A stretch of 64,000 bases of DNA from an uncultured bacterium (GTDB taxonomy: Bacteria > Patescibacteriota > JAHJAL01). This document shows, piece after piece, positions 2,428-51,080 of this stretch. Under the pieces are notes generated by a model. The model did no database searches and was not told where the DNA came from. It saw only the letters and a program-made list of their open reading frames with translations. Position 1 is the first letter of the stretch, and every line of letters begins with the position of its first letter. The stretch spans positions 2,466-66,465 of the forward strand of contig CALKWM010000038.1 in assembly GCA_938004065.1 (NCBI GenBank), in the 5' to 3' direction. The translations under genes and the position numbers were made by a program.

Positions 2428-2523
2428 TGGCGGAATAATCGAAATGATATTTTTTTAAACTTATCAAATATCAAACATAACAAACTTATCAAACAATAAA
2501 CTTATGAAAACTAGGAGAATACA

Positions 2524-3768
2524 ATGTTGGATATAAAATTGATCCGGGAAAACCCGGATATAGTTAAGAAAAACATCGAAAGAAGAGGCAAAGATCCCCA
2601 GATAGTGGATGAAGTATTGGGATTGGACAAGGAGTTGTGTGCTTTGACGGCAAAAATTGACGAATTGAGGTCCAAGAAAAATTTACCTAAAGGTAAACCA
2701 ACGGATGACGAATTGGAAATGTTGGTAAAAATAAAACAAGAGACCGATTCACTGGAAAAAGAAAGAGATGTCTTGGGATCGCAGTTTAAACAGAAAGTGA
2801 TGGCAATCCCAAATCTAACTGCCGATGACGTACCCGATGGCAAGGATGATAGTGAAAACAAGATAGTGGAAAAAGTTGGAGAAATTCCAAAATTTGATTT
2901 CGAAGTGCAAGATCACTTACAAATTGGTGAGAGGTTGGACTTGATTGATTTTGAGCGCGGATCAAAAGTTGCACAGAGCGGGTTTTATTATTTGAAGAAC
3001 GAATTGGCTATGCTTGATTTGTCTTTGCAGAGATATGCGATGGACAAATTGGCGGCTAAAGGATATATACCGATTATCACACCTGATATTGCCAAGGATG
3101 AAATGTGCATGGGTACAGGTTATAATCCGCGTGGAGATGAAAAACAAATTTTTAATATCGCCGATGAAGATATAAGTTTGGTGGGAACAGCGGAAATTAC
3201 TCTCGGAGGGTATTATGCCGATGAGATTATAAATAAAGATGATTTGCCGATAAAATTCGTTGGGTTGTCGCATTGTTTTCGAGTGGAGAAAGGCGGATAT
3301 GGGAAATACTCCAAAGGTTTATATCGAGTAAGGCAGTTTAGTAAAGTCGAAATGTTTATTTTATGTAAACCAGAGGATAGTGAAAAATATCATCAAGAAC
3401 TACTAAGTAACGAAAAAGAAATTTGGAATGAACTTGGCATCCCCTATCGTGTGATGTTGCAATGCACTGGAGACATGGGTAGTTCCAGTATGAAAACATA
3501 TGATGTCGAAGCGTGGATGCCCGGTCGGGGTGATTATGGCGAAGTAACCAGTACTTCCAATACCGGAGATTACCAGGCGCGACGTCTAAAGATTCGTTTC
3601 AAAGATGATGATGGTGCAAATAAATTTGTACACATGCTCAATGGGACTGCTGTCAACAACAGTCGTTTTCCTTTGACTATTTTGGAAAATGGGCAACAGG
3701 CGGATGGCAGCGTGAAGATTCCGGAAGTATTGTGGAAATACACGAGGTTTGATGTAATTACCAAATAG
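2524..3768 (+). CDS. serS: seryl-tRNA synthetase
   Basis: N-terminus MLDIKLIRENPD, coiled-coil arm, class II motifs (FRVEKGG..., GSSSMKTYDVEAWMPG). SD aggag upstream. Hairpin terminator at 3797-3823. Confidence 0.95.
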   Translation: MLDIKLIRENPDIVKKNIERRGKDPQIVDEVLGLDKELCALTAKIDELRSKKNLPKGKPTDDELEMLVKIKQETDSLEKERDVLGSQFKQKVMAIPNLTADDVPDGKDDSENKIVEKVGEIPKFDFEVQDHLQIGERLDLIDFERGSKVAQSGFYYLKNELAMLDLSLQRYAMDKLAAKGYIPIITPDIAKDEMCMGTGYNPRGDEKQIFNIADEDISLVGTAEITLGGYYADEIINKDDLPIKFVGLSHCFRVEKGGYGKYSKGLYRVRQFSKVEMFILCKPEDSEKYHQELLSNEKEIWNELGIPYRVMLQCTGDMGSSSMKTYDVEAWMPGRGDYGEVTSTSNTGDYQARRLKIRFKDDDGANKFVHMLNGTAVNNSRFPLTILENGQQADGSVKIPEVLWKYTRFDVITK

Positions 3769-3796
3769 TAATTGATAATGACTAATTAAATTAGAA

Positions 3797-3823
3797 AAAC
3801 TGCAGTTTGTTACTGCAGTTTTT
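3797..3823 (+). terminator. rho-independent terminator after serS (aaactgcagtttgttactgcagttttt)
   Basis: Perfect 8-bp stem followed by a T-run immediately after the serS stop. Confidence 0.7.
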
Positions 3824-3969
3824 GTTGACGAATACATGACTTTCCCAAAACTCTTTACTATATTGGAATTCTTCCTCGCTTTGACTTGAATTGTGAAAAT
3901 CGGGAGCGTAATTACCAGGAAAAGTGGCTACTTCGCTGGAGAGAGTGTTTTGGATTATGTAACGCGCAA

Positions 3970-6056: not shown

Positions 6057-6180
6057 GAATAGTGCTATATAAAATTAAAATATGGTATGGATCCCCAATC
6101 CGCCCGAGGCGGACAAGTTATCGAATCGCCCGCCGATCCGCATCGAGGATGACAAATAAGAAAATTAGATAGCACTATTC
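6057..6180. mobile_element. ~120-bp MITE with ~25-bp terminal inverted repeats (GAATAGTGCTAT...AATAAGAAAATTAGATAGCACTATTC) enclosing a palindromic core GGATCCCC...GAGGATGACA
   Basis: Seen in sequence. Homologous copies at 14706-14823 (both TIRs) and 46201-46300 (one TIR). Core also contains the CCGCCCGAGGCGGAC palindrome. Confidence 0.7.
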
Positions 6181-6888: not shown

Positions 6889-6894
6889 ATAGAA

Positions 6895-6970
6895 GGGATA
6901 GGTTTTAAACCTGTCCCTACCCTGTGAATTTATAAAACCGGCAGTGGTCTTGATAGACTGCCGGTTTTTT
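6895..6970 (+). terminator. REP-like palindrome GGGATAGGTTTTAAACCTGTCCCTACC followed by a hairpin terminator (aaaccggcagt..actgccggttttttt)
   Basis: Perfect palindromes directly after the hpf stop. The first belongs to the repeat family also at 26818, 42166 and 43118. Confidence 0.6.
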
Positions 6971-14705: not shown

Positions 14706-14823
14706 AGTTGTGCTAATTAATTTTCTTATCTGTCATCCTCGAATCGAAAGTCCGCCGAATCGGCGGGCGCTTCGATATCGGGGATCCATACCATATTTCT
14801 TATTTTTATTTAGCACTACTCAT
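14706..14823. mobile_element. MITE copy with both TIRs (GAGTTGTGCTAATTAATTTTCTTATC ... TTTCTTATTTTTATTTAGCACTACTCAT) around core TGTCATCCTCGA...GGGGATCCATACCAT
   Basis: Reverse-complement homologue of the 6057-6180 element. Confidence 0.7.
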
Positions 14824-15443: not shown

Positions 15444-17393
15444 TTGTTTATAATAAGGGTTATGAATAAAAATAAAGCAAAAACTTTTTGCATCATCACT
15501 TTCGGGTGTGCCATGAATTATAGCGACTCGGACCGAATCGAGGCAGTATTGAAGGAAAACGGTTTGGTTCCGACCAAAAAAGATATTGAGGCCGATTTAG
15601 TGATTATCAATAGTTGCAGTGTCCGGCAAATGGCGGAGGATAGAACATATGGCAAAATCAGTAAATTGGCCAAGTTGAAAAAAAGACCCAAAATAATAGC
15701 CACCGGTTGCTTGGTGTCGGACAAGATTTGGAAAAAATTGTTGGACAAAAACAAATTTGATTTGTGTTTGCCGATTGACCGGATGATTGAACTGCCGAAA
15801 TATCTGGCGGAATGGGGACTGAATTGTCATCCCGAACACGAAAGCGAGTCATCGAGCGTTTCGAGCGATTCGGGATCCCAGAAGAAAATTACCAATTACC
15901 AATTACCAATTACCAATAAAATTCCAAATTCCAAATTCCAAATTCCAAACGAAACATATCTGTCGTCCTCGAGTCGAATGAGTGAAGCGAATATCGACAT
16001 CGGGGATCCAGAAAATAAATCTAAAGTATCAAGTAATAAGTATCAAGGATCAAGTTTGGTGTCCCTCGAACCCGAAGGGTCCACATTGGGACAACTCGGG
16101 ACGATAAATAATGAGATCCTGAATGGCTCGAATAGCCCTGCGGGCTTTCGGGTTCAGGATGACACCAAAAAATACAAGCATTATCTCGACATTGTGCCGA
16201 AGGGGAAACAGACTTTTACGGCGTATATCCCAATCATGACCGGGTGCAATAATTTTTGTTCATATTGTGCGGTGCCATACACTAGAGGCCGCGAAGTTTC
16301 GCGGCCGATGGCGGATGTAATCAACGAAGCCAAGATATTGGCGGAAAATGGGTGTATCGACTTAACTTTGTTGGGGCAGAATGTGAACTCATATAAGTGT
16401 CATCCTGAACTCGGAAGCGAGTCATCGAGCGCTTCGAGCGATTCAGGATCCCAGAAGAAAATTACCAATTACCAATTACCAATTACCAATAAAATTCCAA
16501 ATTCCAAATTCCAAATTCCAAACGAAACATATTTGTCATCCTCGAGTCGAATGAGTGAAGCGGATATCGACAACGGGGATCCAGAAAATAAATATCAAAT
16601 CTCGAATAAATCGCATGGATCCCCGATCCTGCATCCGGGCATTCGCCGGACAGGTTCGCTGGACAAGTTAGCGAAGCGCCCGCCTAAACTAGGAGGGGGA
16701 AGTGAATTAAATAACTCTTTTGTGGAATTATTGCGAAGAGTATCGGATATTAAAGAATTAAAAAGAATATTTTTTATTTCCTCGCATCCGAAAGATATGT
16801 CGGAGGAGTTGATTAGTTTGGTGGCTAGTCGTGATAATTTGTGTAATTACATCCATTTGCCGGTACAGGCGGGAGATAATGAAATTTTAAAAAAGATGAA
16901 CCGGCATTACACACGTGAGCAATATCTTGATCTGGTGGCAATGATTAGAAATACTATTCCCAATGTTAGTTTGACGACAGATCTGATCGTTGGCTTTCCG
17001 GGCGAAAGCGAAAAACAATTTGAGCAATCAGTTGATTTATTCCGACGATGTAAATTTGATATGGCTTTTATCGCCGAGTATTCACCGCGACCCAAAACAG
17101 CCGCTGCTAATTTGAAAGATAATGTCCCCAAAGCGGAAAAACATAGACGAAAGAAGTTTTTAAATGACGAGGTGTTAGCAGTATCTGCACTTGAAAATAA
17201 CAAAAAACTGGAAGGCAAAATTATACCGGTTTTAATATCTCGAGCGAATAAAAATGGATTGATTGGGTTGACTGAAGGGTTAAAACAAGTGCATATCAAA
17301 GGGGATAAAAAAATGATCGGGCAGATTTTGCCGATCAAGATTGTTAAAGCAATGAAGTGGGCGCTGGAGGGAAGAGTTATCAATCATCGATAA
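15444..17393 (+). CDS. miaB: tRNA-i6A37 methylthiotransferase MiaB carrying two in-frame blocks of palindromic repeat-element insertions
   Basis: MTTase N-domain (FCIITFGCAMNYSDS), radical-SAM CNNFCSYCAV and a C-terminal TRAM-like region. 649 aa against ~440-450 expected. Extra ~200 aa map to 15825-16165 and 16398-16700 and consist of copies of the hairpin repeats found intergenically. Confidence 0.85.
   Translation: MFIIRVMNKNKAKTFCIITFGCAMNYSDSDRIEAVLKENGLVPTKKDIEADLVIINSCSVRQMAEDRTYGKISKLAKLKKRPKIIATGCLVSDKIWKKLLDKNKFDLCLPIDRMIELPKYLAEWGLNCHPEHESESSSVSSDSGSQKKITNYQLPITNKIPNSKFQIPNETYLSSSSRMSEANIDIGDPENKSKVSSNKYQGSSLVSLEPEGSTLGQLGTINNEILNGSNSPAGFRVQDDTKKYKHYLDIVPKGKQTFTAYIPIMTGCNNFCSYCAVPYTRGREVSRPMADVINEAKILAENGCIDLTLLGQNVNSYKCHPELGSESSSASSDSGSQKKITNYQLPITNKIPNSKFQIPNETYLSSSSRMSEADIDNGDPENKYQISNKSHGSPILHPGIRRTGSLDKLAKRPPKLGGGSELNNSFVELLRRVSDIKELKRIFFISSHPKDMSEELISLVASRDNLCNYIHLPVQAGDNEILKKMNRHYTREQYLDLVAMIRNTIPNVSLTTDLIVGFPGESEKQFEQSVDLFRRCKFDMAFIAEYSPRPKTAAANLKDNVPKAEKHRRKKFLNDEVLAVSALENNKKLEGKIIPVLISRANKNGLIGLTEGLKQVHIKGDKKMIGQILPIKIVKAMKWALEGRVINHR
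15825..16165. repeat. insertion block 1 in miaB: hairpin element TGTCATCCCGAAC..GATTCGGGATCC, heptamer repeats (ATTACCA)x3-(ATTCCAA)x4, element TGTCGTCCTCGAG..GGGGATCCA, element GTGTCCCTCGAACC..CTCGGGACGA, element GAGATCCTGAAT..GGGTTCAGGATGACA
   Basis: Seen in sequence. Same families occur in intergenic DNA (e.g. 21529, 24647, 19336). Confidence 0.8.
16398..16700. repeat. insertion block 2 in miaB: near-duplicate of block 1 (TGTCATCCTGAAC..GATTCAGGATCC, heptamers, TGTCATCCTCGAG..GGGGATCCA, GGATCCCCGATCC..GCGAAGCGCCCGCC)
   Basis: Encodes CHPELGSESSSASSDSGSQKKITNYQLPITNKIPNSKFQIPNETYLSSSSRMSEADIDNGDPENK, almost identical to the block-1 peptide. Confidence 0.8.
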
Positions 17394-18114: not shown

Positions 18115-19296
18115 ATGACAAGAAATAATTCTAAAAAAGTGAAGTTGGTGTGTATCGGGGGGCCGACAGCTTCGGGGAAAACCGAAGCATCTTTAGTATT
18201 GGCGGAAAAATTTGATGGAGCGATAATTTCCTGTGATTCGAGGCAGATTTACAAAGAGCTGGATGTTTCGACTGATAAAATACCATACTCTCTCCCCTAT
18301 CATGACCCGATTTTATATCGTGGTATAGAACATTATGGAATAAATGTCGCTGAGATTGATAAGCCATTCACATTGTTTGATTGGATGACATATTGCCGAG
18401 GAGCGATTGCCAAAATCGTAAATTCAGGGAAAATTCCATTTCTAGTGGGCGGGACCGGATTATACATTCAGTCAATTATTGAAAATTATAAATTGAAACA
18501 GGATTTTGATGCTGAGTTGAGAGAAGAATTGAATAAAATGTCATTGAAACAATTGCAGACGAGATTGAAAGAATTAAATCCTGATTTGTATGAAAAGATT
18601 GATGTTAATAATCCGCGGAGGGTGGTGAGAGGGATAGAAAGAGCCATTCTGTCATCCTCGAGTCGGAAGCCCGAAGGGCGATCAGACATCGGGGATCCAG
18701 AAAATAAATCTCAAATATCAAATATCAAATATCAAGCAAAAAAAACACATGGATCCCCGATAGCGAAGCGCCCGCCGAGTCGGTGGACTTTCGATTCGAG
18801 GATGACAAAAGAGAGTATCGTAAATCATTCTAAATCCCTGCACGAAGCGGATGGTAATGATGAAAACAATGAGATCCTGAATCGCTCGGAAACTCATCCG
18901 ATAAAAAATCGGATTCGTATCCGGGTTCAGGATGACAAAATAAAAAAATTTGACAGTCTGGTATTGTCATTTAATCCAGAGCGAGAGTTGATTAGACAAC
19001 GGATCGAGAATCGTGTCAAAAAACACCAAGAAATCGGAGTAATTGATGAGGTGAAAAGATTGGTAGAAAAATATGGGGCTGACAATCAGATCTTGAATTC
19101 TACTATTAGTGTGCAGGAATACATTCCATATGTTTTGGGAAAAATTTCATTGGAAAAAGCGCAAGAAAGGGTTGTTATAAATAATTATCAGTATGCCAAA
19201 AGGCAGATGACCTGGTTTAAGAAGTATGGAAATACGGTATTTGTCGATAGTGTAAAGGAGATGGAGAGAGAGATTGTTAAATGGATAAATGGATAA
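18115..19296 (+). CDS. miaA: tRNA dimethylallyltransferase MiaA with an in-frame ~96-aa insertion made of three hairpin repeat elements
   Basis: P-loop GGPTASGKTE, DSRQIYKELD, LVGGTGLY motifs. 393 aa against ~300 expected. Insertion 18650-18937. Confidence 0.85.
   Translation: MTRNNSKKVKLVCIGGPTASGKTEASLVLAEKFDGAIISCDSRQIYKELDVSTDKIPYSLPYHDPILYRGIEHYGINVAEIDKPFTLFDWMTYCRGAIAKIVNSGKIPFLVGGTGLYIQSIIENYKLKQDFDAELREELNKMSLKQLQTRLKELNPDLYEKIDVNNPRRVVRGIERAILSSSSRKPEGRSDIGDPENKSQISNIKYQAKKTHGSPIAKRPPSRWTFDSRMTKESIVNHSKSLHEADGNDENNEILNRSETHPIKNRIRIRVQDDKIKKFDSLVLSFNPERELIRQRIENRVKKHQEIGVIDEVKRLVEKYGADNQILNSTISVQEYIPYVLGKISLEKAQERVVINNYQYAKRQMTWFKKYGNTVFVDSVKEMEREIVKWING
18650..18937. repeat. insertion block in miaA: TGTCATCCTCGAG..GGGGATCCA; ATATCAA heptamer x3; GGATCCCCGA..GAGGATGACA; GAGATCCTGAAT..GGGTTCAGGATGACA
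   Basis: Seen in sequence. Translated in the same frame (LSSSSR...DIGDPENK) as the copies in miaB. Confidence 0.8.
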
Positions 19297-19569
19297 AAAA
19301 TTAACATATCAAACTTAGCAATTAACAAACTTAAGAAGTTTCAAGACTCAAGTATCAAGGATCAAGTATTGGTGTCCCTCGACAAGCTCGGGACGATATT
19401 TATTCAAAGCTATAAAAAGGAAAACAATCTCAAGGTTTTTACGGAAGTTTTAATGTTTGGATGGTAAAATGGGATAAGTTATAAGTAAAAAGTAATAAGT
19501 AAAAAATTAGCACAAATATAAGTTTTGGAAAGTTTGTAATTGTTTGAAAAGTTTGATTAAGTTTGTCCC

Positions 19570-21528: not shown

Positions 21529-21981
21529 TGTCATCCTGAACCCGAATCCGCTCAGAGCGGATATCGAGCTATTCAGGATCTTGCAACTCATCACTTAGAA
21601 ACTTGGCAATACAAATCGTTCCAAGAAGAATTATTTCTCTCTATTAGTTTGACTTTTCAGGATATATTCCAGTCTTTTTAGTATTTTTTCTTTTCCAATG
21701 GCATCGTCAATATCATCAAACATCTCAAAATAAACGAGTTGATCAATATTGTATTTGGATGCAAAACATTTTATAATCCTATTTTTATGTGCCCAAACTC
21801 TACCCTTTAAATAATTTTTGACTCCAATATACAAAATCCCTTTTGCTCTATTTGCTAGAATATAAACATAATAATCATTTTTCATAATCTGATTTTTTCA
21901 ATTTAGAGAATAATTTAATATTAAGAGATCCTGAATTGCTCGATGTGCTCATAAAAATTCGCTTTCGGGTTCAGGATGACA
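21529..21981. mobile_element. GIY-YIG cassette: hairpin element (21529-21580, TGTCATCCTGAA..ATTCAGGATC), GIY-YIG ORF, inverted hairpin element (21925-21981, GAGATCCTGAAT..GGGTTCAGGATGACA)
   Basis: Outer ends are perfect inverted repeats TGTCATCCTGAAC / GTTCAGGATGACA. Second copy with the same architecture at 26029-26466. Confidence 0.6.
21631..21885 (-). CDS. GIY-YIG nuclease superfamily protein (YhbQ/URI-like)
   Basis: YYVYILANRAKGILYIGVKNYLKGRVWAHKN matches the GIY-(10-11)-YIG pattern of small URI-domain nucleases. Confidence 0.75.
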   Translation of the reverse strand: MKNDYYVYILANRAKGILYIGVKNYLKGRVWAHKNRIIKCFASKYNIDQLVYFEMFDDIDDAIGKEKILKRLEYILKSQTNREK

Positions 21982-21995
21982 CCAAGGATTAATAC

Positions 21996-22835
21996 ATGAA
22001 AATATTGGACGGGAAAAAATTGGCGGGGGAAGTTACAGAACGACTGAAAAATGAAGTCGTTAAATTAAGACAAAACGGTATAGTGCCCAAACTAATAATA
22101 TTTCAAGTGGGGAATAATCCCGCTTCAAATGTTTATGTGCGTATGAAACAGAAAAAAGCCGAAGAGATCGGGGCGATTTGCCGGGTGGAGAAATTGGATG
22201 AATCCGCAGGAGAAGAAAAGCTGTGTGAATTGATAACAAAGTTCAATAGTGACGAAGAAGTAAAAGGGATAATTGTCCAACTTCCCCTACCCGATGGCTG
22301 GGATAAAAATCGGATAATCAACATGATTGACGAAAAAAAAGATGTGGATGGATTGACGGACGCCAATCAGATCAAAATTTTAAATGGTGATTTGTCAGGT
22401 TTGAAACCGGCCACGCCAAAAGGAATAGTTTCGATATTGGACAAATACGAGATTCCAATTGCCGGTGCCAGAGTGGTGGTGGTCGGCCGGAGCCGACTGG
22501 TTGGCAAGACCGTTGCTTTGATGCTTTTAAACCGGAACGCCACCGTTACAATATGCCACAGCAAGACAGATGATTTGAAAAGTGTTACCAGGGAAGCGGA
22601 TATCTTGATATCCGCCGTGGGAGTGCCAAAATTGATCACTGTAAAGCATGTCAAATCGGGAGCAATAGTTGTTGATGTCGGTATCAGCCAGGAAACAGAT
22701 ACCGGAATGGTCGGCGATGTGGATTTCGAGGCGGTAAAGGATGTAGCCGGCATGATCTCGCCGGTGCCGGGTGGAGTGGGCCCGATGACGGTCGTATGTT
22801 TGTTTGAAAATCTGATCGATTCGTGCCAGAATTAA
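21996..22835 (+). CDS. folD: bifunctional methylenetetrahydrofolate dehydrogenase/cyclohydrolase
   Basis: Typical FolD N-terminus MKILDGKKLAGEV, IVQLPLP motif, Rossmann GRSRLVGKTVAL. Confidence 0.9.
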   Translation: MKILDGKKLAGEVTERLKNEVVKLRQNGIVPKLIIFQVGNNPASNVYVRMKQKKAEEIGAICRVEKLDESAGEEKLCELITKFNSDEEVKGIIVQLPLPDGWDKNRIINMIDEKKDVDGLTDANQIKILNGDLSGLKPATPKGIVSILDKYEIPIAGARVVVVGRSRLVGKTVALMLLNRNATVTICHSKTDDLKSVTREADILISAVGVPKLITVKHVKSGAIVVDVGISQETDTGMVGDVDFEAVKDVAGMISPVPGGVGPMTVVCLFENLIDSCQN

Positions 22836-22881
22836 TATATTGAATATAAAAAAACATAAAAGTTTATCTTACAATCAGTCT

Positions 22882-22919
22882 CCCCAACTTTTTTTAAAAA
22901 AAGTTGGGGTATTTTTTTT
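22882..22919 (+). terminator. rho-independent terminator after folD (ccccaacttttttt aaaaaaagttgggg + T-run)
   Basis: Perfect palindrome followed by tttttttt. Confidence 0.7.
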
Positions 22920-23799
22920 GTGATAAACCAAAGAATAATGATAAATAGTGATAAATATGACTATTGACATTCACCAATTTTTTCGATACAAATAATCTAT
23001 CGAAAATTAAAAAATTCAAAAAAGAAAGGATGTGAAATATAGTGATAGAATTTACCTTCTATACACTAGAATGTTGGATCAGTTTATTCACCAGGAGATT
23101 GATCGATTTTGTGAGTGAATTGTTTAAAACAAGAAATCACAAACCGGTCAGAAAAATATCGCCGGTGAACAAAAAATACGTCGCCAGTTGGGAAAGACGG
23201 CACGAGCGACGTGATTTTAGAAAAATCGGTGGCCAAAAAAAGGATGCAAAAAGGCCATCAAAGGATAACTTTTCTCAGTTTTCAGGGAAAAAGTTATCCA
23301 ATACAAAGAAAGGAGTGTTGTCAAAATGTTTTGGTAAAATTAATTTTTCAAAACAATTGAATAACGCTACTACCACCACCATATGATATGGTGGATTTTT
23401 TTTGCTAAAAAACTACGTTTTCATAGATTATTTTATGGTTAGGATGGTATTTTATAACATTTAAACCTTGACTTTTTGATATTTTTGATTTATAATGCTG
23501 TTGTGAACGATCGTCCCCAGCAAAAAATGAGAAAAAAATAACTTACTCTTTTTTGATGGGGATAAAAAAAATTTGTCAGGAGGTGAAAAAAGTTGATTTT
23601 CGGATAATGTAATTTTTGAAATGGATTATTTTTCAAAAAACATATCCATAAGATCAACTGGAAAAAATGAAGAATTATTTTTTTGATCAAAAAAAAGATC
23701 TGCCAGGTTCAGGTGGACTTGGCTGGTAAAGGAAAAAAAAATGGAGTTTAACCACATATTAAAAAAGTTAGACTCCTTTTTTAAAAAAATTATTATCAC

Positions 23800-24633
23800 A
23801 TGATTAACAAAATATTTTTAAATCTCGGGATGACAGAGCGGGAAGCTAAAGTGTATTTAGCAATTTTGAAATTGTGCAATCCCAATATCAGCGACTTACA
23901 AAAACAGACCGGCCTTTCCAGGAGTACGGTTTATTATTGTATCGATTTATTGATTAAGAATGATATCGTTTTTTCTAAAAAGCTTAATGAGAAGACAGTT
24001 TATGAAGCTATTTCCCCTGAACAATTGAAAAAAATCGTAGAATATAAAATTACCGAGCTCAAAAAAGACATAACGATATTTGAAAAAGCTATACCGGATA
24101 TCGTTCAGTCAACAAAAAAAGGGAAAATGAATCTGAAAATGCTAAAAGGATTTAAGTCTTTGACCAATACGATGCGAGATGTGTACATCGGTCACAAAAA
24201 TTCAACCGTAAGAGTTTTTGGCACAAAACCGAAAGAGTATAATTTAAAACATTTCGACAAATCTTTTGAAAAAACCATAAATAATCGAATAACAAACAAT
24301 GTTTTTTTGAAAGGAATTAGCCCTATTACGAAAAACAAATTTCTTGTTCGAGATAAAGACTTAAAACAACTTCGCGAGTCTAGATTTTTGCCGGAAAAGA
24401 CCTTTAATTTTCAAAGTGAGATATTTATTTTCGACGACTTGGTACTGGTAATCAGTGAGGATATTGAAAATGAAGTAAATACAATTTATTTTGATGATGT
24501 AAACTATGTGAATACTATGAAAATGATATTTGATTTGGCGTGGGAAGCGGCGGGGAAATATGATAAAGAAGTGGTGGCGGAGTATGAGAAAAACATATCA
24601 AACTTATCAAATATCAAACATAGCAAACAATAA
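23800..24633 (+). CDS. TrmB-like transcriptional regulator (N-terminal wHTH, C-terminal ligand domain)
   Basis: N-terminus LGMTEREAKVYLAILKLCNPNISDLQKQTGLSRSTVYYCIDLLIKNDIV is typical of TrmB-family HTH. C-terminal codons overlap ATATCAA-type heptamer repeats. Confidence 0.55.
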   Translation: MINKIFLNLGMTEREAKVYLAILKLCNPNISDLQKQTGLSRSTVYYCIDLLIKNDIVFSKKLNEKTVYEAISPEQLKKIVEYKITELKKDITIFEKAIPDIVQSTKKGKMNLKMLKGFKSLTNTMRDVYIGHKNSTVRVFGTKPKEYNLKHFDKSFEKTINNRITNNVFLKGISPITKNKFLVRDKDLKQLRESRFLPEKTFNFQSEIFIFDDLVLVISEDIENEVNTIYFDDVNYVNTMKMIFDLAWEAAGKYDKEVVAEYEKNISNLSNIKHSKQ

Positions 24634-24646
24634 ATAAGTATAAAAA

Positions 24647-24697
24647 GATCCTGAATCGCTCGAACGCTCGATGACTCGCTTTCGGGTTCAGGATGAC
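24647..24697. repeat. hairpin element GATCCTGAATCGCTCGAACGCTCG..GGGTTCAGGATGACA
   Basis: Same family as 21925, 26415, 18871, 16113 and 44284. Confidence 0.75.
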
Positions 24698-25274
24698 AAA
24701 AAAGAAACACCTTATTTAATTTTGTAAAGGTGTTTATAGTATAATTTAGGCGGAAAATAGTTTCAAAATCCCTCACCTATTCCTAGGTTGGGTTTTTATT
24801 TTTGTGTTTGTTAGCTAATTTTTAGAAGATGATCTTACACATTTTTTTTTATATTAATTTTTGATAAGCATTTTAAAAAGGTACAAAGAATACTTGAAAA
24901 AGGATAATTTTGTTTTTGTTTTTGTTTTGGCCCTACCTTTTGAGGCGAAAATTTTTTCGTTTTTGTTCTCTTTCAAGTATTCTTGTTCATAAGGTGCATT
25001 GGGCTTAACCCAACATTTTTTGTTTTTGGATATTGGGTTTCTTTTTCCAATATCGTATTAGTGTAGCAAATCTGGAATAATAAGTCAATAGTCAGGTAAA
25101 CGAAACCTATCAAATTCCAAACATATCAAACTTATCAAACATATACATAAATTTAATTATGGTTTGTTAAGTTTGATATTTGCTAGGTTTGATATGTTTA
25201 ATACAGAGACGATTTGCAATTCACTGATTATTATTTATAATTGATATGATATTTTTATAACAAATTATTACATT

Positions 25275-25994
25275 ATGTCGAAGATGCGTTTGCAAAAATT
25301 TCTAGCGGAGAGCGGTGTCGGTTCCAGAAGGGAATGCGAGGAGCATATCTGGGAGGGACGGGTAAGGGTCAACGGACGAAAAGTGGCGGAAATGGGTGTA
25401 ATAATTGATCCGGAAGTGGATGAAGTGCGATTTAAAAATCGAATCGTGCGACTTGATGAAAAAGTATATTATGTTTTAAATAAACCGGTTGGTTATGTTT
25501 CAACCAGGAGAGATATTAACGCTCCCAAGATGGTAGTGGATTTGGTTCCCCAAAACCCGCCCGTTTACCCTGTCGGCAGGTTGGACAAGGAATCGGAAGG
25601 ATTGATTTTGATTACCAATGACGGTGAGTTGACCAATCAATTAACCCATCCTTCCAGTCATGTGGAAAAGGAATATATGGTTGTGTGCCGGCCTCGATTT
25701 GATGATTTGAGATTGATGGAAGCGGTCAAAAAGTTGCAAAAAGGAGTGTTAATTGACGGATATCTGACACGTGAGGCCAAAGTGTTTGCGGTCAGTGAAG
25801 ATCGGAGTAAAGTAAAGTTCAATATCATCATCAAAGAGGGTAAAAATCGGCAGATTCGCCGGATGTGCCACAATGTCGGATTGAAGGTTATATCGCTCAA
25901 AAGAATCAGAATAGGCAGGTTAAAATTGGGAGGGTTGAAGAAGGGAGAATACAAAGTGTTAGATATCAATAATATTAAGAAACTATTATACTAA
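25275..25994 (+). CDS. rluB: RluB/RsuA-family 23S/16S rRNA pseudouridine synthase (S4 domain + catalytic domain)
   Basis: S4 domain (MRLQKFLAESGVGSRRECEEHI), catalytic motif GRLDKESEGLILITNDG. Confidence 0.8.
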   Translation: MSKMRLQKFLAESGVGSRRECEEHIWEGRVRVNGRKVAEMGVIIDPEVDEVRFKNRIVRLDEKVYYVLNKPVGYVSTRRDINAPKMVVDLVPQNPPVYPVGRLDKESEGLILITNDGELTNQLTHPSSHVEKEYMVVCRPRFDDLRLMEAVKKLQKGVLIDGYLTREAKVFAVSEDRSKVKFNIIIKEGKNRQIRRMCHNVGLKVISLKRIRIGRLKLGGLKKGEYKVLDINNIKKLLY

Positions 25995-26028
25995 CAATGT
26001 CAAATTGCGAGTAAATTTGTCATCCTGA

Positions 26029-26466
26029 ACCCGAAAGGTCCGTCTTCGGACCGCTTCGAGTGATTCAGGATCCCTCCAATTACCAGAATTGAATATCATT
26101 ATACAAATCATTCCAATTCGGATTTTCTTTTTCTATCAATTTTATTTTCCAACTTCTTTTCCAATCTTTTAACTTTTTTTCTCTGTATATTGCTTCATTG
26201 ATATCCTCAAATATTTCATAGTACACTATTTTATCAATATTATATTTTGATGTGAATCCTCTGATGATTTTGTTCTTATGTTCCCATACTCGACCCTTTA
26301 AAACACTTGTAACGCCAATATACAAACTAGCTCGTTTTTTGTTTGTTAAAATGTAGACATAATAAATATTTTTCATAATTATATTATCTAACTTAGTAAT
26401 TAAATATATATTAAGAGATCCTGAATTGCTTGAAGCGCCCTTCGGGCTTTCAGGTTCAGGATGACA
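26029..26466. mobile_element. second GIY-YIG cassette: hairpin element (26029-26085), GIY-YIG ORF, inverted hairpin element (26415-26466)
   Basis: Same architecture and flanks (..atattaagagatcctgaattgct..) as 21529-21981. An extra solo right end ..GCAAGTTCAGGATGACA at 26518-26534. Confidence 0.6.
26080..26376 (-). CDS. GIY-YIG nuclease superfamily protein (paralog of 21631-21885)
   Basis: YYVYILTNKKRASLYIGVTSVLKGRVWEHKN. Confidence 0.75.
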   Translation of the reverse strand: MKNIYYVYILTNKKRASLYIGVTSVLKGRVWEHKNKIIRGFTSKYNIDKIVYYEIFEDINEAIYREKKLKDWKRSWKIKLIEKENPNWNDLYNDIQFW

Positions 26467-26565
26467 CTTTTTCTTTAATTTTGATCAAATTTGATAATTT
26501 CCGCCCATGGTGGCTTGCAAGTTCAGGATGACATAATTAGTTTGACATTTGCTAAGTATAATTAA

Positions 26566-27519
26566 ATGAAAATAGACATTATTACCCTATTTCCCGAGAT
26601 GTTTGCTGGTGTATTTGAGGCCAGTATTATCGGACGTGCCAGGGAAAAGGGCTTGATAGAGATAAATTTGCATAATCTCAGGGACTGGGCAGTCGATAAA
26701 CACAAAACCGTTGATGACACGCCTTATGGCGGAGGCGCGGGGATGGTGATCAAGGTGGAGGTGATGGACCGATGCCTGACAGACATAATTCAAAAATCAA
26801 AAATCAAAAATCAAAAAGGACAGGTTACAAACCTGTCCCTACAACGGATATTAATGACACCGCAGGGAAGGACATTTGATCAGAAAAAGGCGAGGGAGAT
26901 GGCGAAATTGGACCAAATCGTTTTGATCTGCGGGCATTACGAAGGATTTGATCAAAGAATTCATGAAAATTTGGTGGACGAGGAATTATCGATCGGAGAT
27001 TTTGTCCTGACCGGTGGAGAGATTCCGGCGATGGCGGTAGTAGATGCGGTAGCTCGACTGGTGCCGGGGGTGATCAAAGAAGAGTCACATATGAATGAGA
27101 GTTTTTCGGTGGTACCTGATAACCACCCCGCCACGCCTCATCGGCGGGAGCCCCTCCTTGAAAAGGAGGGGTGTAAAAAGAAGGAGAAAAGTGATGGATC
27201 CCCCCACCACACCGCCACGCCTTCGCTCATAAAAAGGGAGCTTCGGCGAGCTGCTCCTACTCGAACAGGGGGGAACTACCACCACCCCGAATCGGTCTGC
27301 GACCTTTCTACCCTTCCACTGGTCCACCCCAAAAATTGTTTCACAATTTCTGGGGACCCCGGGGCAGGAGGGGAATATAGACAAGATTTGTATCTAGAAT
27401 ATCCGCATTATACAAAACCGGCGGAATACAAAGGGTGGAAAGTGCCGGAGGTGCTAATGTCCGGCAATCACGCCGAGATTGAAAAATGGAGACAAAAAAA
27501 TATCAAAAAGAAGCCATGA
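26566..27519 (+). CDS. trmD: tRNA (guanine37-N1)-methyltransferase TrmD with two in-frame repeat insertions
   Basis: MKIDIITLFPEMF, GGGAGMV, LICGHYEGFDQR, LTGGEIPAMAVVDAV, SGNHAEIEKWR motifs. 317 aa against ~230-250 expected. Insertions at 26790-26850 and ~27115-27375. Confidence 0.85.
   Translation: MKIDIITLFPEMFAGVFEASIIGRAREKGLIEINLHNLRDWAVDKHKTVDDTPYGGGAGMVIKVEVMDRCLTDIIQKSKIKNQKGQVTNLSLQRILMTPQGRTFDQKKAREMAKLDQIVLICGHYEGFDQRIHENLVDEELSIGDFVLTGGEIPAMAVVDAVARLVPGVIKEESHMNESFSVVPDNHPATPHRREPLLEKEGCKKKEKSDGSPHHTATPSLIKRELRRAAPTRTGGNYHHPESVCDLSTLPLVHPKNCFTISGDPGAGGEYRQDLYLEYPHYTKPAEYKGWKVPEVLMSGNHAEIEKWRQKNIKKKP
26790..26850. repeat. in-frame insertion 1 in trmD: (AAAATCA)x3 heptamers + REP palindrome GGACAGGTTACAAACCTGTCCCTAC
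   Basis: Palindrome family also found intergenically at 6895, 42166 and 43118. Confidence 0.7.
27115..27375. repeat. in-frame GC-rich insertion 2 in trmD (CACCCCGCCACGCC..GCCCCTCCTTGAAAAGGAGGGG.. and further GC-rich palindromic units)
   Basis: Strong local GC shift inside a low-GC gene. First unit homologous to the intergenic element at 18003-18062. Sits between conserved ...EESFS and LEYPHYTKP... segments of TrmD. Confidence 0.65.
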
Positions 27520-34237: not shown

Positions 34238-34280
34238 GATCCCGGATAATCTAGCGCTTCGCTTAGATTTCCGGGATGAC
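34238..34280. repeat. hairpin element GGATCCCGGATAATCTAGCGCTTCGCTTAGATTTCCGGGATGACA between wzt and wzm
   Basis: Variant of the GGATCC...GGATGACA hairpin family. Confidence 0.55.
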
Positions 34281-34332
34281 AACAATAGTAAATTTCTTTC
34301 GGACCCGAGAGATCTTTGTTGGGGCATGAAAG

Positions 34333-42158: not shown

Positions 42159-42290
42159 CAAATTGGTAGGGACAGGTTTGAAACCTGTCCCTACCAAAAG
42201 GACAACCCGAGGGTTGCCCCTACAAATAATCATACGCCACCCTGGTTCACGAAAAACATGTGGATGGTACGGATGATGATGAAATGATTT

Positions 42291-44187: not shown

Positions 44188-44270
44188 GGTTTTTTGATAA
44201 TAATTTTACGGATCTATCTCCCCGCCCTTTGGGCAATTCAGAATGTTCAGTTATTCAAACCACCTTCATT

Positions 44271-44640
44271 TCTCAGGATGACAGAGATCCTGAATCGCTC
44301 GAGCGCTCGTATAACTCGCCTCGGGTTCAGGATGACATTGTAATTTGTTTGGAATTTGATTAGACAAGGATGGGTGGAACAACGTAGAACTCCTTCCATT
44401 TCTTAAGATGACAGAGATCCTGAATCGCTCGAGTGCTAGTATAACTCGCCTCGGGTTCAGGATGACATTGTGATTTGTTTGGAATTTGATTAGACAAGGA
44501 TGGGTGGAACAACGTAGAACTCCTTCCATTTCTTAAGATGACAGAGATCCTGAATCGCTCGAGTGCTCGTATAACTCGCCTCGGGTTCAGGATGACATTG
44601 TGATTTGTTTTCCGCCCAAGGCGGACCAGTCATAAACTGG
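44271..44640. repeat. tandem array, ~2.8 copies of a 130-bp unit (hairpin element GAGATCCTGAATCGCTCGAG..GGGTTCAGGATGACA + 73-bp spacer)
   Basis: Unit starts at 44284, 44414 and 44544. Spacers are identical between units. Confidence 0.8.
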
Positions 44641-44672
44641 GGAAATTGGAAATTGATACTTGGAAATTGTCC

Positions 44673-46200: not shown

Positions 46201-46300
46201 GGATCCCCAATCCAGCATTCGCCGGACAAGTTGTCTAATCGCTCGTCCCTCGCTTTCGACTCGAGGATGACAGATAAGAAAATTAATTAGCACTACTCAT
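46201..46300. mobile_element. MITE copy (core GGATCCCCAATCC..CGAGGATGACA + right TIR GATAAGAAAATTAATTAGCACTACTCAT; left TIR absent)
   Basis: Homologous to 6057-6180 and 14706-14823. Confidence 0.6.
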
Positions 46301-48863: not shown

Positions 48864-51080
48864 ATGAAAAAGTTTTTTGGGTGGGTGGTGGTTTTTGTAC
48901 TTTTAGCGTCGTTATTCATAAATATTCAAGGTGTAAAAGCAGCGACGACTATATTGCATGAGTTTTCAGGAGGAGGGAGTGATGGAGCTAATCCACGCAC
49001 TGGTCTTACTCACTACGACGGTAAACTTTATGGAACAACGTTTAATGGAGGGGATTCAAATGAAGGAACAGTTTTTAGAGTTGATATAGATGGCTCAAAC
49101 TTCACTTTGTTGCATGAATTTGCGGGAGGAGGGAGTGATGGAGCAAAACCTTTTAGTGCTTTGCTAATAGAATCTGGCGTGATTTATGGAACAACCACCA
49201 AAGGAGGTGATAATAATATTGGAACAATATTCTCAATGAATACTAATGGAACAGGATTCACTTTATTGCATGAATTTGCAGGTGGTGCAAATGATGGCCA
49301 AAGTCCACTTGGCTCTTTAATTCTAGATACTGGTGTTCTTTATGGAACAACAGATCGAGGTGGAGACTACAATTATGGAACCATATATTCCATCCAAACA
49401 GATGGAAATAATTTTTCTTTGTTGCATGAGTTCGCGGGATCTCCAAACGAAGGAAGTTACCCTAAGGGCAATTTACTTTATAGTGAAGGAAAGCTATACG
49501 GAACTACAAACAGTGGAGGAAATGCGACAGGATATGGGTATGGATATGGCACAATATTCTCTATCGATACAGATGGAACTAATCACGTACTTTTACACGA
49601 ATTTGGTGGAGGAAATAATGATGGTGCTTATCCATACGGAGGATTAGTTATCGACTCAGGCACGCTTTATGGCTTAACTAATAGTGGAGGCGACAGTGGC
49701 TATGGAACTATTTTTTCGATAGATACCAATGGAACAAATTTTACTCTGTTGCATGAGTTTGCTGGGGGCAATGATGACGGTAATAGTCCTAAAGATTCAT
49801 TATTGTTAAGTAATGGAACATTGTTTGGAACAACATTTTATGGAGGTGAATTTGGAGCTGGTTTTGGCTATGGTACTATTTTCTCAATTGATACTAATGG
49901 TTTGAATTTTGGTTTACTACATGAGTTTGAATCAGGTACAGATGATGGTAGCTGGCCAGAAGGAAATCTAATTCTGGTTTCTAATAATTTTTACTCAACC
50001 ACAAATGCTGGTGGTGACAGCAATTTAGGTACAATTTTTAGTACAGATCTGCCTATATCTTCAGGTCCTACATCAATCAAAAACACGCTAAGCAGTTCCG
50101 CTCCCGGGGAATTGGTGAATATGACTATCGAATACACTCCAGCACTAACAACTGCTGTGACTGATGGATCGGTTAAATTAACCCTCGCTGAAGAATTTGA
50201 TTTTAACGGAATATCAAAAGACGACGTATCTGCCAGTGGTGGAGATGTTACTTGGGATCCTAATGAGATAATAACAGTCGATGGGACAATAATCACAAGA
50301 AATAATAGCTGGGTAGACAGAGTTTACGCGCAGGGAGAAGATAGTATTGTGTTTGGATTTACGGGAGATTTGGACAATACTGGCGGGACAATTACATTTA
50401 CCATCAATGGAGCGACCGCTCCGTTGAATCCCGGTTCAATTGGTTCATATGATTTCAATGTGGGAGTTTTTTCGACCAGCGACGGTACCGGTGCGGCTTT
50501 GGAAGTAAGAGATGGGAGAGTGGCGATTGCCAGTCAAGTAAATGTTACCGCCACCGTTCCATCTACCCTAACTCTAACAATTAATGGAGTGGCAAGTGGA
50601 AACGCGTGTAGTAATAGTGGTAGCAATGCATCAGTTACAACAACATCTTCTACTATTCCATTTGGAATATATACCGGAGCACAAACCAAGATAGCTTGTC
50701 AGACATTAACAGTAAGTACCAATGCTACCAATGGATATATCGTAACTGTCGAACAAGATCAAGATCTAACCAGTGCCGGATCAGATACAATGAAAGCTTT
50801 TTCCGGTACTTATGCCACTCCAACAACTTGGGCAACACCTCCGGGGAGTGGAACGGAATCATTTTTTGGATTTACGACTGATGATACCGGCTACTCCAGT
50901 TTTCAAACAGCTAAATACGCGGGATTTGCGGTGGATAATACTCCATATGCCATCATGACCGGACCGGAACCGGTGGTTGATGAAGAGAATGTAATTTCCT
51001 ATCAATTGGAAGTTACTAACTTGCAAGAAGCGGGTGTTTATAGTAATACTGTAATGTATATTGCGACGGCGATGTTTTAG
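48864..51080 (+). CDS. secreted repeat protein: signal peptide, 8 tandem ~45-aa beta-propeller-like repeats (LLHEFxGGxxDGxxPxxxL....LYGTTxxGG....GTIFSI) resembling choice-of-anchor GloVer-type repeats, plus ~330-aa C-terminal module shared with the 57651-62075 protein
   Basis: Signal peptide MKKFFGWVVVFVLLASLFINIQGVKA. LHEF occurs 8 times at regular spacing. C-terminal module ends ...VMYIATAMF. Confidence 0.7.
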   Translation: MKKFFGWVVVFVLLASLFINIQGVKAATTILHEFSGGGSDGANPRTGLTHYDGKLYGTTFNGGDSNEGTVFRVDIDGSNFTLLHEFAGGGSDGAKPFSALLIESGVIYGTTTKGGDNNIGTIFSMNTNGTGFTLLHEFAGGANDGQSPLGSLILDTGVLYGTTDRGGDYNYGTIYSIQTDGNNFSLLHEFAGSPNEGSYPKGNLLYSEGKLYGTTNSGGNATGYGYGYGTIFSIDTDGTNHVLLHEFGGGNNDGAYPYGGLVIDSGTLYGLTNSGGDSGYGTIFSIDTNGTNFTLLHEFAGGNDDGNSPKDSLLLSNGTLFGTTFYGGEFGAGFGYGTIFSIDTNGLNFGLLHEFESGTDDGSWPEGNLILVSNNFYSTTNAGGDSNLGTIFSTDLPISSGPTSIKNTLSSSAPGELVNMTIEYTPALTTAVTDGSVKLTLAEEFDFNGISKDDVSASGGDVTWDPNEIITVDGTIITRNNSWVDRVYAQGEDSIVFGFTGDLDNTGGTITFTINGATAPLNPGSIGSYDFNVGVFSTSDGTGAALEVRDGRVAIASQVNVTATVPSTLTLTINGVASGNACSNSGSNASVTTTSSTIPFGIYTGAQTKIACQTLTVSTNATNGYIVTVEQDQDLTSAGSDTMKAFSGTYATPTTWATPPGSGTESFFGFTTDDTGYSSFQTAKYAGFAVDNTPYAIMTGPEPVVDEENVISYQLEVTNLQEAGVYSNTVMYIATAMF

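Follow-up and report, generated by a model that had tools for sequence, protein, structure and literature searches.

Do small GIY-YIG nuclease genes that lie between hairpin repeats form units that spread through a genome together with those repeats? The question is raised by two such genes in a 64,000-nucleotide stretch of DNA from an uncultured member of the Patescibacteria (candidate phyla radiation, CPR), contig CALKWM010000038.1 of assembly GCA_938004065.1, positions 2,466 to 66,465. We call this whole stretch the window and number it from its first letter. Our analysis indicates that the two loci are very probably cassettes of the Ssn type, in which each gene is bracketed by inverted copies of its putative cognate hairpin (SRM or NTS), a member of the CGTC/TGTC-tagged superfamily of repetitive extragenic palindromes (REPs); the action of the enzyme is predicted by homology. 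The finding is sound but not new. It is a further example of the Ssn nuclease/hairpin system published in 2013 and 2025, and it reveals no new kind of system. The parts of the two cassettes are as follows.

21597-21885, minus strand: ssn copy A, an open reading frame (ORF) of 84 aa at 21631-21885 plus an out-of-frame C-terminal remnant at 21597-21677
21529-21580, plus strand (sense): family-A hairpin (SRM) downstream of ssn copy A, TGTCA + 7-8 bp stem + TC; single-stranded DNA (ssDNA) fold -13.2 kcal/mol, z -4.6
21927-21981, minus strand (gene-strand sense): family-A hairpin on the upstream side of ssn copy A, with 41 nt between it and the start codon
26080-26376, minus strand: ssn copy B, intact, coding for a 98-aa single-domain GIY-YIG protein of the Ssn family
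26018-26072, plus strand: family-A hairpin on the downstream side of ssn copy B, 7 nt past its stop codon; ssDNA fold -14.4 kcal/mol, z -4.5
26417-26466, minus strand: family-A hairpin on the upstream side of ssn copy B, with 40 nt between it and the start codon

The SsnA protein of Neisseria meningitidis has 94 aa and a single domain, GIY-YIG (CDD cd10448), and the Ssn proteins of about 95 aa are site-specific single-stranded-DNA endonucleases (Chenal et al. 2025, Nat Commun 16:2388, PMC11893778). The preliminary description of the window had named two paralogous small GIY-YIG genes at 21631-21885 and 26080-26376, and both ORFs exist at these coordinates. They match the Pfam GIY-YIG model PF01541 (E 3.9e-10 for copy A, 6.5e-15 for copy B), and their proteins are 64% identical over the first 70 residues. 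Copy A, however, is not intact. Three-frame translations and tblastn placed its residues 1-70 and 70-96 in different frames; the final ~27 residues are out of frame with an extra stop, and the conserved C-terminal segment of the family, WKR.WK..LIE..NP.W.DLY, is lost. Because of the frameshift and the extra stop, copy A is a decayed gene.

In copy B, PF01541 spans residues 5-78 and is the sole domain detected. The protein shows 49% identity over 89 aa (E 6e-33) to the ssnA ortholog of Neisseria gonorrhoeae and 62% to a 96-aa GIY-YIG homolog of W. pipientis (P0010); these comparators are orthologs or homologs, not the exact proteins assayed in the 2025 study. At least 1500 homologs of ~95 aa were found in Patescibacteria, Wolbachia, Legionella, Rhodospirillales and other hosts. 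The best 120 have 58-72% identity to copy B, and identity to the homologs of the four named groups is 59-69%. The substitutions Y6A, Y17A and E64A abolish cutting by SsnA (PMC11893778). These catalytic residues align with Y8, Y19 and E66 of copy B, and they are also retained in the truncated copy A. Copy B thus combines the length (about 90-100 aa), the single domain, the homology to SsnA, the catalytic residues and the oriented flanking hairpins of an Ssn-family protein, and its nuclease activity is predicted by homology.

Hairpin repeats of ~52 nt (TGTCATCCTGAAC...ATTCAGGATC) enclose each ssn gene as an inverted pair. The orientation is the same in both cassettes, with the sense copy 40-41 nt upstream of the gene and the antisense copy just downstream. 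The units of ~450 bp with inverted hairpin ends, as first described, measure 453 and 449 bp. Their perfect terminal inverted repeats of 18 and 14 nt exceed the 13 nt first claimed, and the conserved inner flanks were also borne out by a gene-proximal flank of 23 nt, ATATTAAGAGATCCTGAATTGCT, which is identical in the two cassettes. At the nucleotide level the two copies are ~72% identical, and the hairpin ends are better conserved between them than the coding sequence. The cassettes contain no second ORF, and GIY-YIG is the only enzyme domain, with none of a strand-transfer type (DDE, HUH, serine or tyrosine recombinase). An independent assembly that includes both cassettes is 99.99% identical over 12.8 kb, so the cassettes are not an assembly artefact. 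Around both cassettes, promoter scans gave no excess over shuffles and terminator scans gave no hit. A tRNA scan found no tRNA, and hence no tRNA-linked integration. A search of a phage collection returned no homolog of the nuclease, and plasmid matches were mostly to megaplasmids, chromids or chromosomes under a wrong label, so that nothing points to carriage of ssn by phages or plasmids.

The hairpin repeats of the window are far beyond chance. The motif GTTCAGGATGACA occurs 12 times exactly and 15 times with at most two mismatches, compared with ~1.4 expected and a maximum of 4 in 100 shuffles at that tolerance. Perfect hairpins of the form GTCA + 7-bp stem + TC number 13 in the window and 0-2 in shuffles. 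All 12 full family-A copies read TGTC + ATCCTGAA...TTCAGGAT + C(T/C)C, and in all 12 the 5' TGTC tag, an 8-bp stem starting with AT and the C right after the stem are invariant. In the copy at 15825 a compensatory change, TCCCGAA/TTCGGGA, preserves the stem. Repeat length is 50-65 nt. Within the interior of 33-48 nt there is a second, short helix (CGAA/TTCG), and most copies also have a third, variable nested hairpin whose sequence is unrelated. As ssDNA, the majority of copies fold much more stably than shuffles (z -2.5 to -5.4). Family B (seven copies) has the ends of family A on a stem of its own (TGTCATCCTCGA...GGGGATC), and one copy has a third type of stem. The window holds ~20 full repeat copies in 64 kb, as solos, gene-less inverted doublets, a tandem array and cassette flanks. 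The preliminary description was right that the hairpin elements are spread through the window and also lie inside genes, since 8 of the 20 full copies (40%) stand in frame within miaB (15444-17393) and miaA (18115-19296). An Rfam scan of the whole window at the gathering threshold gave no match, so the hairpins are not a curated RNA family. The copies outside the cassettes are listed below.

6090-6154, minus strand: family-B hairpin
14731-14786, plus strand: intergenic family-B hairpin, TGTCATCCTCGA...GGGGATC
15825-16164: gene-less unit of 340 bp in frame in miaB, with inverted family-A ends at 15825-15877 (plus) and 16115-16164 (minus) and a nested family-B hairpin at 15961-16008
16398-16581, plus strand: second in-frame miaB insert with two hairpins, family A at 16398-16450 and then family B at 16534-16581; it copies 15822-16036 at 93%
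18650-18807: inverted family-B doublet in frame in miaA, 18650-18697 (plus) and 18752-18807 (minus), partly shared with the relative L162
18873-18937, minus strand: solo family-A hairpin in frame in miaA, a 21-aa insertion missing from L162 miaA
24647-24698, minus strand: solo family-A hairpin, 14 nt past the stop of a TrmB-like gene
26505-26533, minus strand: truncated hairpin, 3' half only, with 79% identity to the same part of the copy at 16136-16164 and no 5' arm
34238-34281, minus strand: single hairpin of the third stem type, ends TGTCATCC...GGATCC, stem TCCCGGAAATC; z -5.4
44271-44283: truncated hairpin end
44286-44337, 44416-44467 and 44546-44597, minus strand: three family-A hairpins in a 130-nt tandem array (44286-44597), each abutting a truncated hairpin end
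46202-46272, minus strand: family-B hairpin

The truncated copy at 26505-26533 is the solo right end that had been placed at 26518-26534, and it is real.

The window cassettes were compared with the same sites in the two nearest relatives found, L162 and L164, which keep the gene order PBP2-FolD-...-RluB-TrmD. In L162 (PBP2 73% and FolD 62% identical) the PBP2-FolD spacer is 42 nt. In L164 (PBP2 61%, FolD 54%) this spacer is 24 nt and the RluB-TrmD spacer is 9 nt. Neither an ssn gene nor a hairpin is present at those spacers in L162 and L164. The window cassettes fill exactly these spacers, and just 3 and 14 nt are left around cassette A. The solo miaA hairpin is likewise missing from L162. 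Cassettes and single hairpins were thus most probably gained at orthologous sites, loss being much less parsimonious. The earlier claim that the cassettes are discrete units is upheld in this sense, as they are insertions relative to the syntenic relatives.

The pairing of gene and hairpin recurs in other genomes. We searched 80 loci from 80 other species for GTCA-tagged perfect hairpins. Upstream of the ssn homolog, 28 of the 80 loci have a sense hairpin at a distance of up to 200 nt; 25 have an antisense hairpin up to 250 nt downstream, and 19 have both, compared with ~0 in shuffles. The wrong orientation was found in only 4 loci upstream and 10 downstream, and the far flanks hold just 0.12 hairpins per kb. 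Most gaps between the upstream hairpin and the start codon are below 45 nt; downstream they range from -38 to 212 nt, with about two-thirds below 45 nt, so the unit is usually compact. Across lineages the stems vary and the GTCAT...ATC frame persists. The preliminary description had held that nuclease genes and hairpins belong together, and that GIY-YIG genes elsewhere lacking hairpins would point to coincidence. The association stands: it recurs across phyla in fixed orientation and has also been published (PMC11893778).

A short-loop version of the window stem, GTCATCCTGAAC-TTGT-TTCAGGATC, adjoins ssn in two other CPR genomes (L026 and L055). For this reason the window repeats, judged by their sequence, look like loop-expanded derivatives.

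Several observations were made at homologous loci. Identical-protein look-ups for two homologs, P0043 and P0067, returned one genomic context each, and P0067 shows tandem copy-number variation. Metagenome contigs of another organism (L168-L171, from ENA, ~2500-3840) carry 2-3 tandem ssn cassettes with a period of ~523 nt, each with an upstream sense and a downstream antisense hairpin, and the copy number varies between samples. This array lies inside an island with type I restriction-modification subunits, an AAA_21/RloB pair and a SIR2-like gene. In a Rickettsiales metagenome-assembled genome (L008, 660-1375), 94-nt gene-less inverted doublets of short CGTC-tagged hairpins (CGTCATCCTTGGTGCGTAGCACCGAGGATC, a 31-nt spacer and the reverse copy) stand just upstream of an ssn homolog; these fit the published link of CGTC REPs to some Rickettsia palindromic elements. 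The gonococcal ssnA ortholog (L167, 690-975) has no ORF of at least 80 aa, since its ATG and the conserved body are in different frames; in this strain it is a possible pseudogene, with NTS copies in mixed orientations to either side.

What would the protein do with these repeats? SsnA binds the NTS hairpin (CGTCATTCCCGCG...CGGGAATC) only as ssDNA and in one orientation only, and cuts a few nucleotides upstream; cutting depends most on the three nucleotides before the palindrome and binding most on the C after it (PMC11893778). Target hairpins (NTS/SRM) of the encoded enzyme typically flank its ssn gene: an SRM is found near 71% of homolog genes and on both sides in 42% (PMC11893778). DNA with NTS transforms Neisseria less well in the presence of the enzyme. 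The NTS-ssnA-NTS arrangement was noted there as insertion-sequence-like and compared with REPs and REP-associated tyrosine transposases (RAYTs); no mobility was demonstrated (PMC11893778). The positions critical for cleavage and binding, the GTC tag and the 3' C (PMC11893778), are invariant in the family-A repeats of the window.

By homology to the tested enzymes, the window nuclease would ignore duplex DNA. Wherever the DNA becomes single-stranded, as in incoming transforming DNA or in replication and repair intermediates, the repeat could fold into a hairpin, and the features read by the protein would be the GTC tag on the 5' side, the stem, and the C that directly follows it on the 3' side. 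The nick would fall a few nucleotides 5' of the TGTC tag. Since the repeats on either side are inverted, each strand should receive one of the two predicted nicks, immediately beyond the cassette. Such nicks might stimulate host recombination and repair, by which repeats and cassette would spread and turn over, with an outcome like that of REP/RAYT systems. This route is proposed because the enzyme would be a hydrolytic GIY-YIG protein without strand-transfer chemistry. As in Neisseria, the enzyme may also restrict recombination of incoming ssDNA that carries the repeat. Machinery for DNA uptake is commonly encoded in CPR genomes.

Some results weigh against the assignment to the Ssn system or against its mobility. 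The published SRM pattern, HGTCWYN(0-2)YYVSBRHN(0-5)WNVSBRGN(0-2)RNCYNB, matches canonical NTS but has 0 matches in the window, because the window repeats have a long interior and an A/T-richer stem. Given this mismatch and the interior of 33-48 nt, recognition of the window repeats by the enzyme is an assumption. The nuclease matches no NCBIfam model and has no detectable relative among the PDB sequences. The relatives with empty sites are distant (FolD 54-62%, PBP2 61-73%), so that loss in them keeps some probability and exact insertion boundaries are unreadable; in a metagenome scan with FolD for close relatives the best match was at most 52% identical, and none shared the neighbour genes of the window. 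There is also no sign of recent transposition, because the copies are ~72% identical and one of them is decayed, and the assemblies showed no polymorphism between them.

Nuclease-driven mobility is unproven, and the readings differ in what they make of it. A bold extension of the Ssn reading is that hairpin-gene-hairpin is a self-propagating element of a new mechanism. The ssDNA-specific hydrolytic GIY-YIG enzyme would drive copying through host repair and would seed solo hairpins even in frame in essential tRNA-modification genes. Ssn would then be the missing mobilising enzyme of the CGTC-tagged REPs, which include dRS3 and the Rickettsia elements RPE-4 and RPE-6. We put this forward tentatively, as a possibility that is on balance improbable.

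A second explanation is an autonomous transposon. The 450-bp unit would be a minimal insertion sequence with the GIY-YIG protein as transposase, and the solos and doublets would be non-autonomous derivatives of the MITE type (miniature transposable elements with inverted repeats). The perfect 14-18-nt terminal inverted repeats, the compact SRM-gene-SRM packaging conserved in many phyla and the empty sites in relatives agree with it, as do the gene-less units 15825-16164 and 18650-18807 with the same ends, the tandem cassettes that differ in copy number between samples in another organism, and the insertion-sequence-like architecture noted in the 2025 study. The chemistry does not. GIY-YIG enzymes hydrolyse DNA without a covalent intermediate, and no strand-transfer activity is known in this superfamily. 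Tested Ssn enzymes cut ssDNA only, and in one strand orientation only (PMC11893778). By homology, each cassette strand would carry just one cleavable hairpin, which would make excision of the IS200/IS605 type impossible. A true transposase role is unlikely on chemical grounds, since the enzyme is expected to hydrolyse DNA without joining it and to have only a single site to cut on each strand.

The target sites speak in the same direction. Neither cassette is flanked by a direct repeat of 3 nt or more; the target-site duplications that had been suggested as a check are absent from both, and a direct reading of the flanks of the miaA solo hairpin showed none there. The two copies have diverged and one is dead, and the two homologs looked up by identical protein occupy a single genomic context each. 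The autonomous mobility proposed in the preliminary description is not supported. The characterised homologs are ssDNA-specific hydrolytic nucleases that cut next to the hairpin and serve the host in Neisseria by restricting transformation, and nothing shows the cassettes to be parents of the solo hairpins or the GIY-YIG protein to be a transposase. The idea of MITE-like derivatives survives in part: gene-less doublets and solos exist, including the miaA solo that a relative lacks, but the solos would be cognate sites of the enzyme and not merely cassette ends. As in insertion sequences and MITEs, the units have terminal inverted repeats and are present or absent at a given site, and they lack the target-site duplication and the strand-transfer enzyme of such elements. 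The transposon explanation is thus unlikely as a whole.

In a homing-type explanation, the hairpins came first. A selfish ssn gene would nick them and be copied in by recombinational repair, and the flanks would be the invaded target or its homology arms. Cutting beside the repeat and outside the cassette, as published for Ssn enzymes (PMC11893778), suits this model. So do the truncated ends that adjoin full repeats at 26505-26533 and 44271-44283, the excess of repeats over genes (~20 to 2 in 64 kb) and the better conservation of hairpin ends than of coding sequence between the cassettes. But the spacers of the relatives are hairpin-free at both sites, so nothing there hints at a target that preceded the cassettes. 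In classical GIY-YIG homing enzymes a separate domain binds the DNA, and the substrate that is cut is double-stranded DNA (dsDNA); judged by homology, the window enzyme shares neither trait. No phage or intron context was found for the ssn gene. We consider homing very doubtful.

That the hairpins are ordinary REP-like regulatory or terminator elements with GIY-YIG genes between them by accident is effectively refuted: repeats are abundant enough in the window to flank some genes by accident, and the solo at 24647-24698 lies just past a stop codon, as is often the case with REPs, but both cassettes share arrangement, orientation and spacing, the same arrangement is found in 19 of the 80 unrelated species (~0 expected) and genome-wide in the published survey (PMC11893778), and no terminator-like T tracts follow the hairpins.

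The Ssn reading is the one that we retain, and the remaining repeats of the window are described here beside it. The genes miaB, miaA and trmD (26566-27519) code for three tRNA position-37 modification enzymes, and all have in-frame inserts, called repeat-derived, with their ORFs open. Family models match MiaB, MiaA and TrmD each in 2-3 separate stretches, with three in MiaB. The inserts comprise two of ~100 aa each in miaB, the doublet and the solo hairpin in miaA, and 81 aa in trmD. The trmD insert (27151-27396, residues 196-276) is GC-rich compared with the window (38% GC), has no TGTCA-tagged hairpin and is missing from the 237-aa TrmD of L164. NCBIfam holds models of Rickettsia palindromic elements (RPEs). 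None of these matched MiaB, MiaA or TrmD at E <=1.

At 44258-44647 a 130-nt unit is repeated three times, each full hairpin being abutted by a truncated end (..TTCTYARGATGACA). This suggests repeated insertion beside, or duplication of, an existing copy. A/T-rich repeats of the type AAACTTATCAAA(T/C)ATCAAAC occupy intergenic spacers at 2457-2520, 19303-19333, 24591-24638 and 25103-25199, and are also present in the PBP2-FolD spacer of L162 (3225-3270). They may be a lineage-specific promoter or regulatory motif. A palindromic repeat, GGGACAGGTTTGAAACCTGTCCCTAC, occurs three times (6893-6940, 26815-26862 and 42165-42214), and one of these copies falls within trmD, where the sequence can still be aligned with the protein of the relative. 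Tandem repeats of 156 nt (48948-49903) and 297 nt (58741-59747) lie in the large ORFs 48864-51080 and 57651-62075, and are probably repeated domains of surface proteins.

Our study extends the Ssn/SRM system of 2025 to a genome of the Patescibacteria. What is new is local, namely two cassette sites that are empty in syntenic relatives, hairpins with long interiors and a high share of in-frame intragenic copies. The published SRM pattern misses long-loop variants, and published censuses would under-count SRMs as a result. The empty cassette sites and the miaA solo absent from a relative bear, through comparison of genomes, on the possible mobility of Ssn cassettes and CGTC-type hairpins. Whether Ssn mobilises hairpin repeats is the main interest, and this locus is a reasonable place to ask. 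The intact 98-aa protein with its 52-nt site is also a candidate new specificity among ssDNA-cutting tools.

Among known systems, GIY-YIG homing endonucleases such as I-TevI and the phage Seg proteins share the catalytic fold and are small, possibly selfish genes. The window gene differs in having no extra DNA-binding domain and no intron or phage context, and its target, by homology, would be an ssDNA hairpin and not a long dsDNA site. The IS200/IS605 elements also have subterminal hairpins that are recognised on single-stranded DNA. Their two end hairpins are on the same strand and their HUH enzyme cuts and joins, whereas the window hairpins are on opposite strands and the enzyme is predicted only to cut. 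REP/RAYT systems and REPINs offer a further analogy, with a nuclease gene flanked by inverted copies of a hairpin that would be recognised on ssDNA, dispersed gene-less inverted doublets and solos, and a possibly domesticated role. Unlike the HUH Y1 transposase (Y1_Tnp) of those systems, the window gene codes for a predicted hydrolytic GIY-YIG enzyme with no covalent intermediate and no rejoining, and the tag is (C/T)GTC instead of GTAG.

The repeats themselves resemble the CGTC-tagged REPs catalogued by Di Nocera et al. 2013 (PMC3733652), in which the tag is often TGTC. That class has stems of 8-9 bp starting A-T, a short 3' tail, loops of 4-5 nt, head-to-head dimers and intragenic copies, and it includes dRS3, Rickettsia RPE-4 and RPE-6 (PMC3733652). 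The window repeats have the listed TGTC variant of the tag, an 8-bp stem starting A-T, a short unpaired 3' tail, inverted dimers and copies in coding regions, including those of RNA-modification genes. Their interior of 33-48 nt departs from the short loops of the survey, which covered no CPR genomes. The CGTC-tagged REPs seem to have no transposase of their own (PMC3733652), whereas a GIY-YIG gene is tightly linked to the repeats here and in the 2025 study (PMC11893778).

The published Ssn/SRM system differs from the window in several respects. The host of the window belongs to a phylum unmentioned in PMC11893778. The window repeats are 50-65 nt long with an interior that often holds a nested hairpin, and the published pattern allows an interior of at most 5 nt. 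In-frame copies inside genes make up 40% of the window repeats, compared with 2% in N. meningitidis, and the window has two gene copies, one of them decayed. The likeness extends to the ~95-aa GIY-YIG protein with its catalytic Tyr/Tyr/Glu kept, to the oriented flanking hairpins with a 5' GTC tag and a 3' C, and to repeats dispersed in many copies and clusters.

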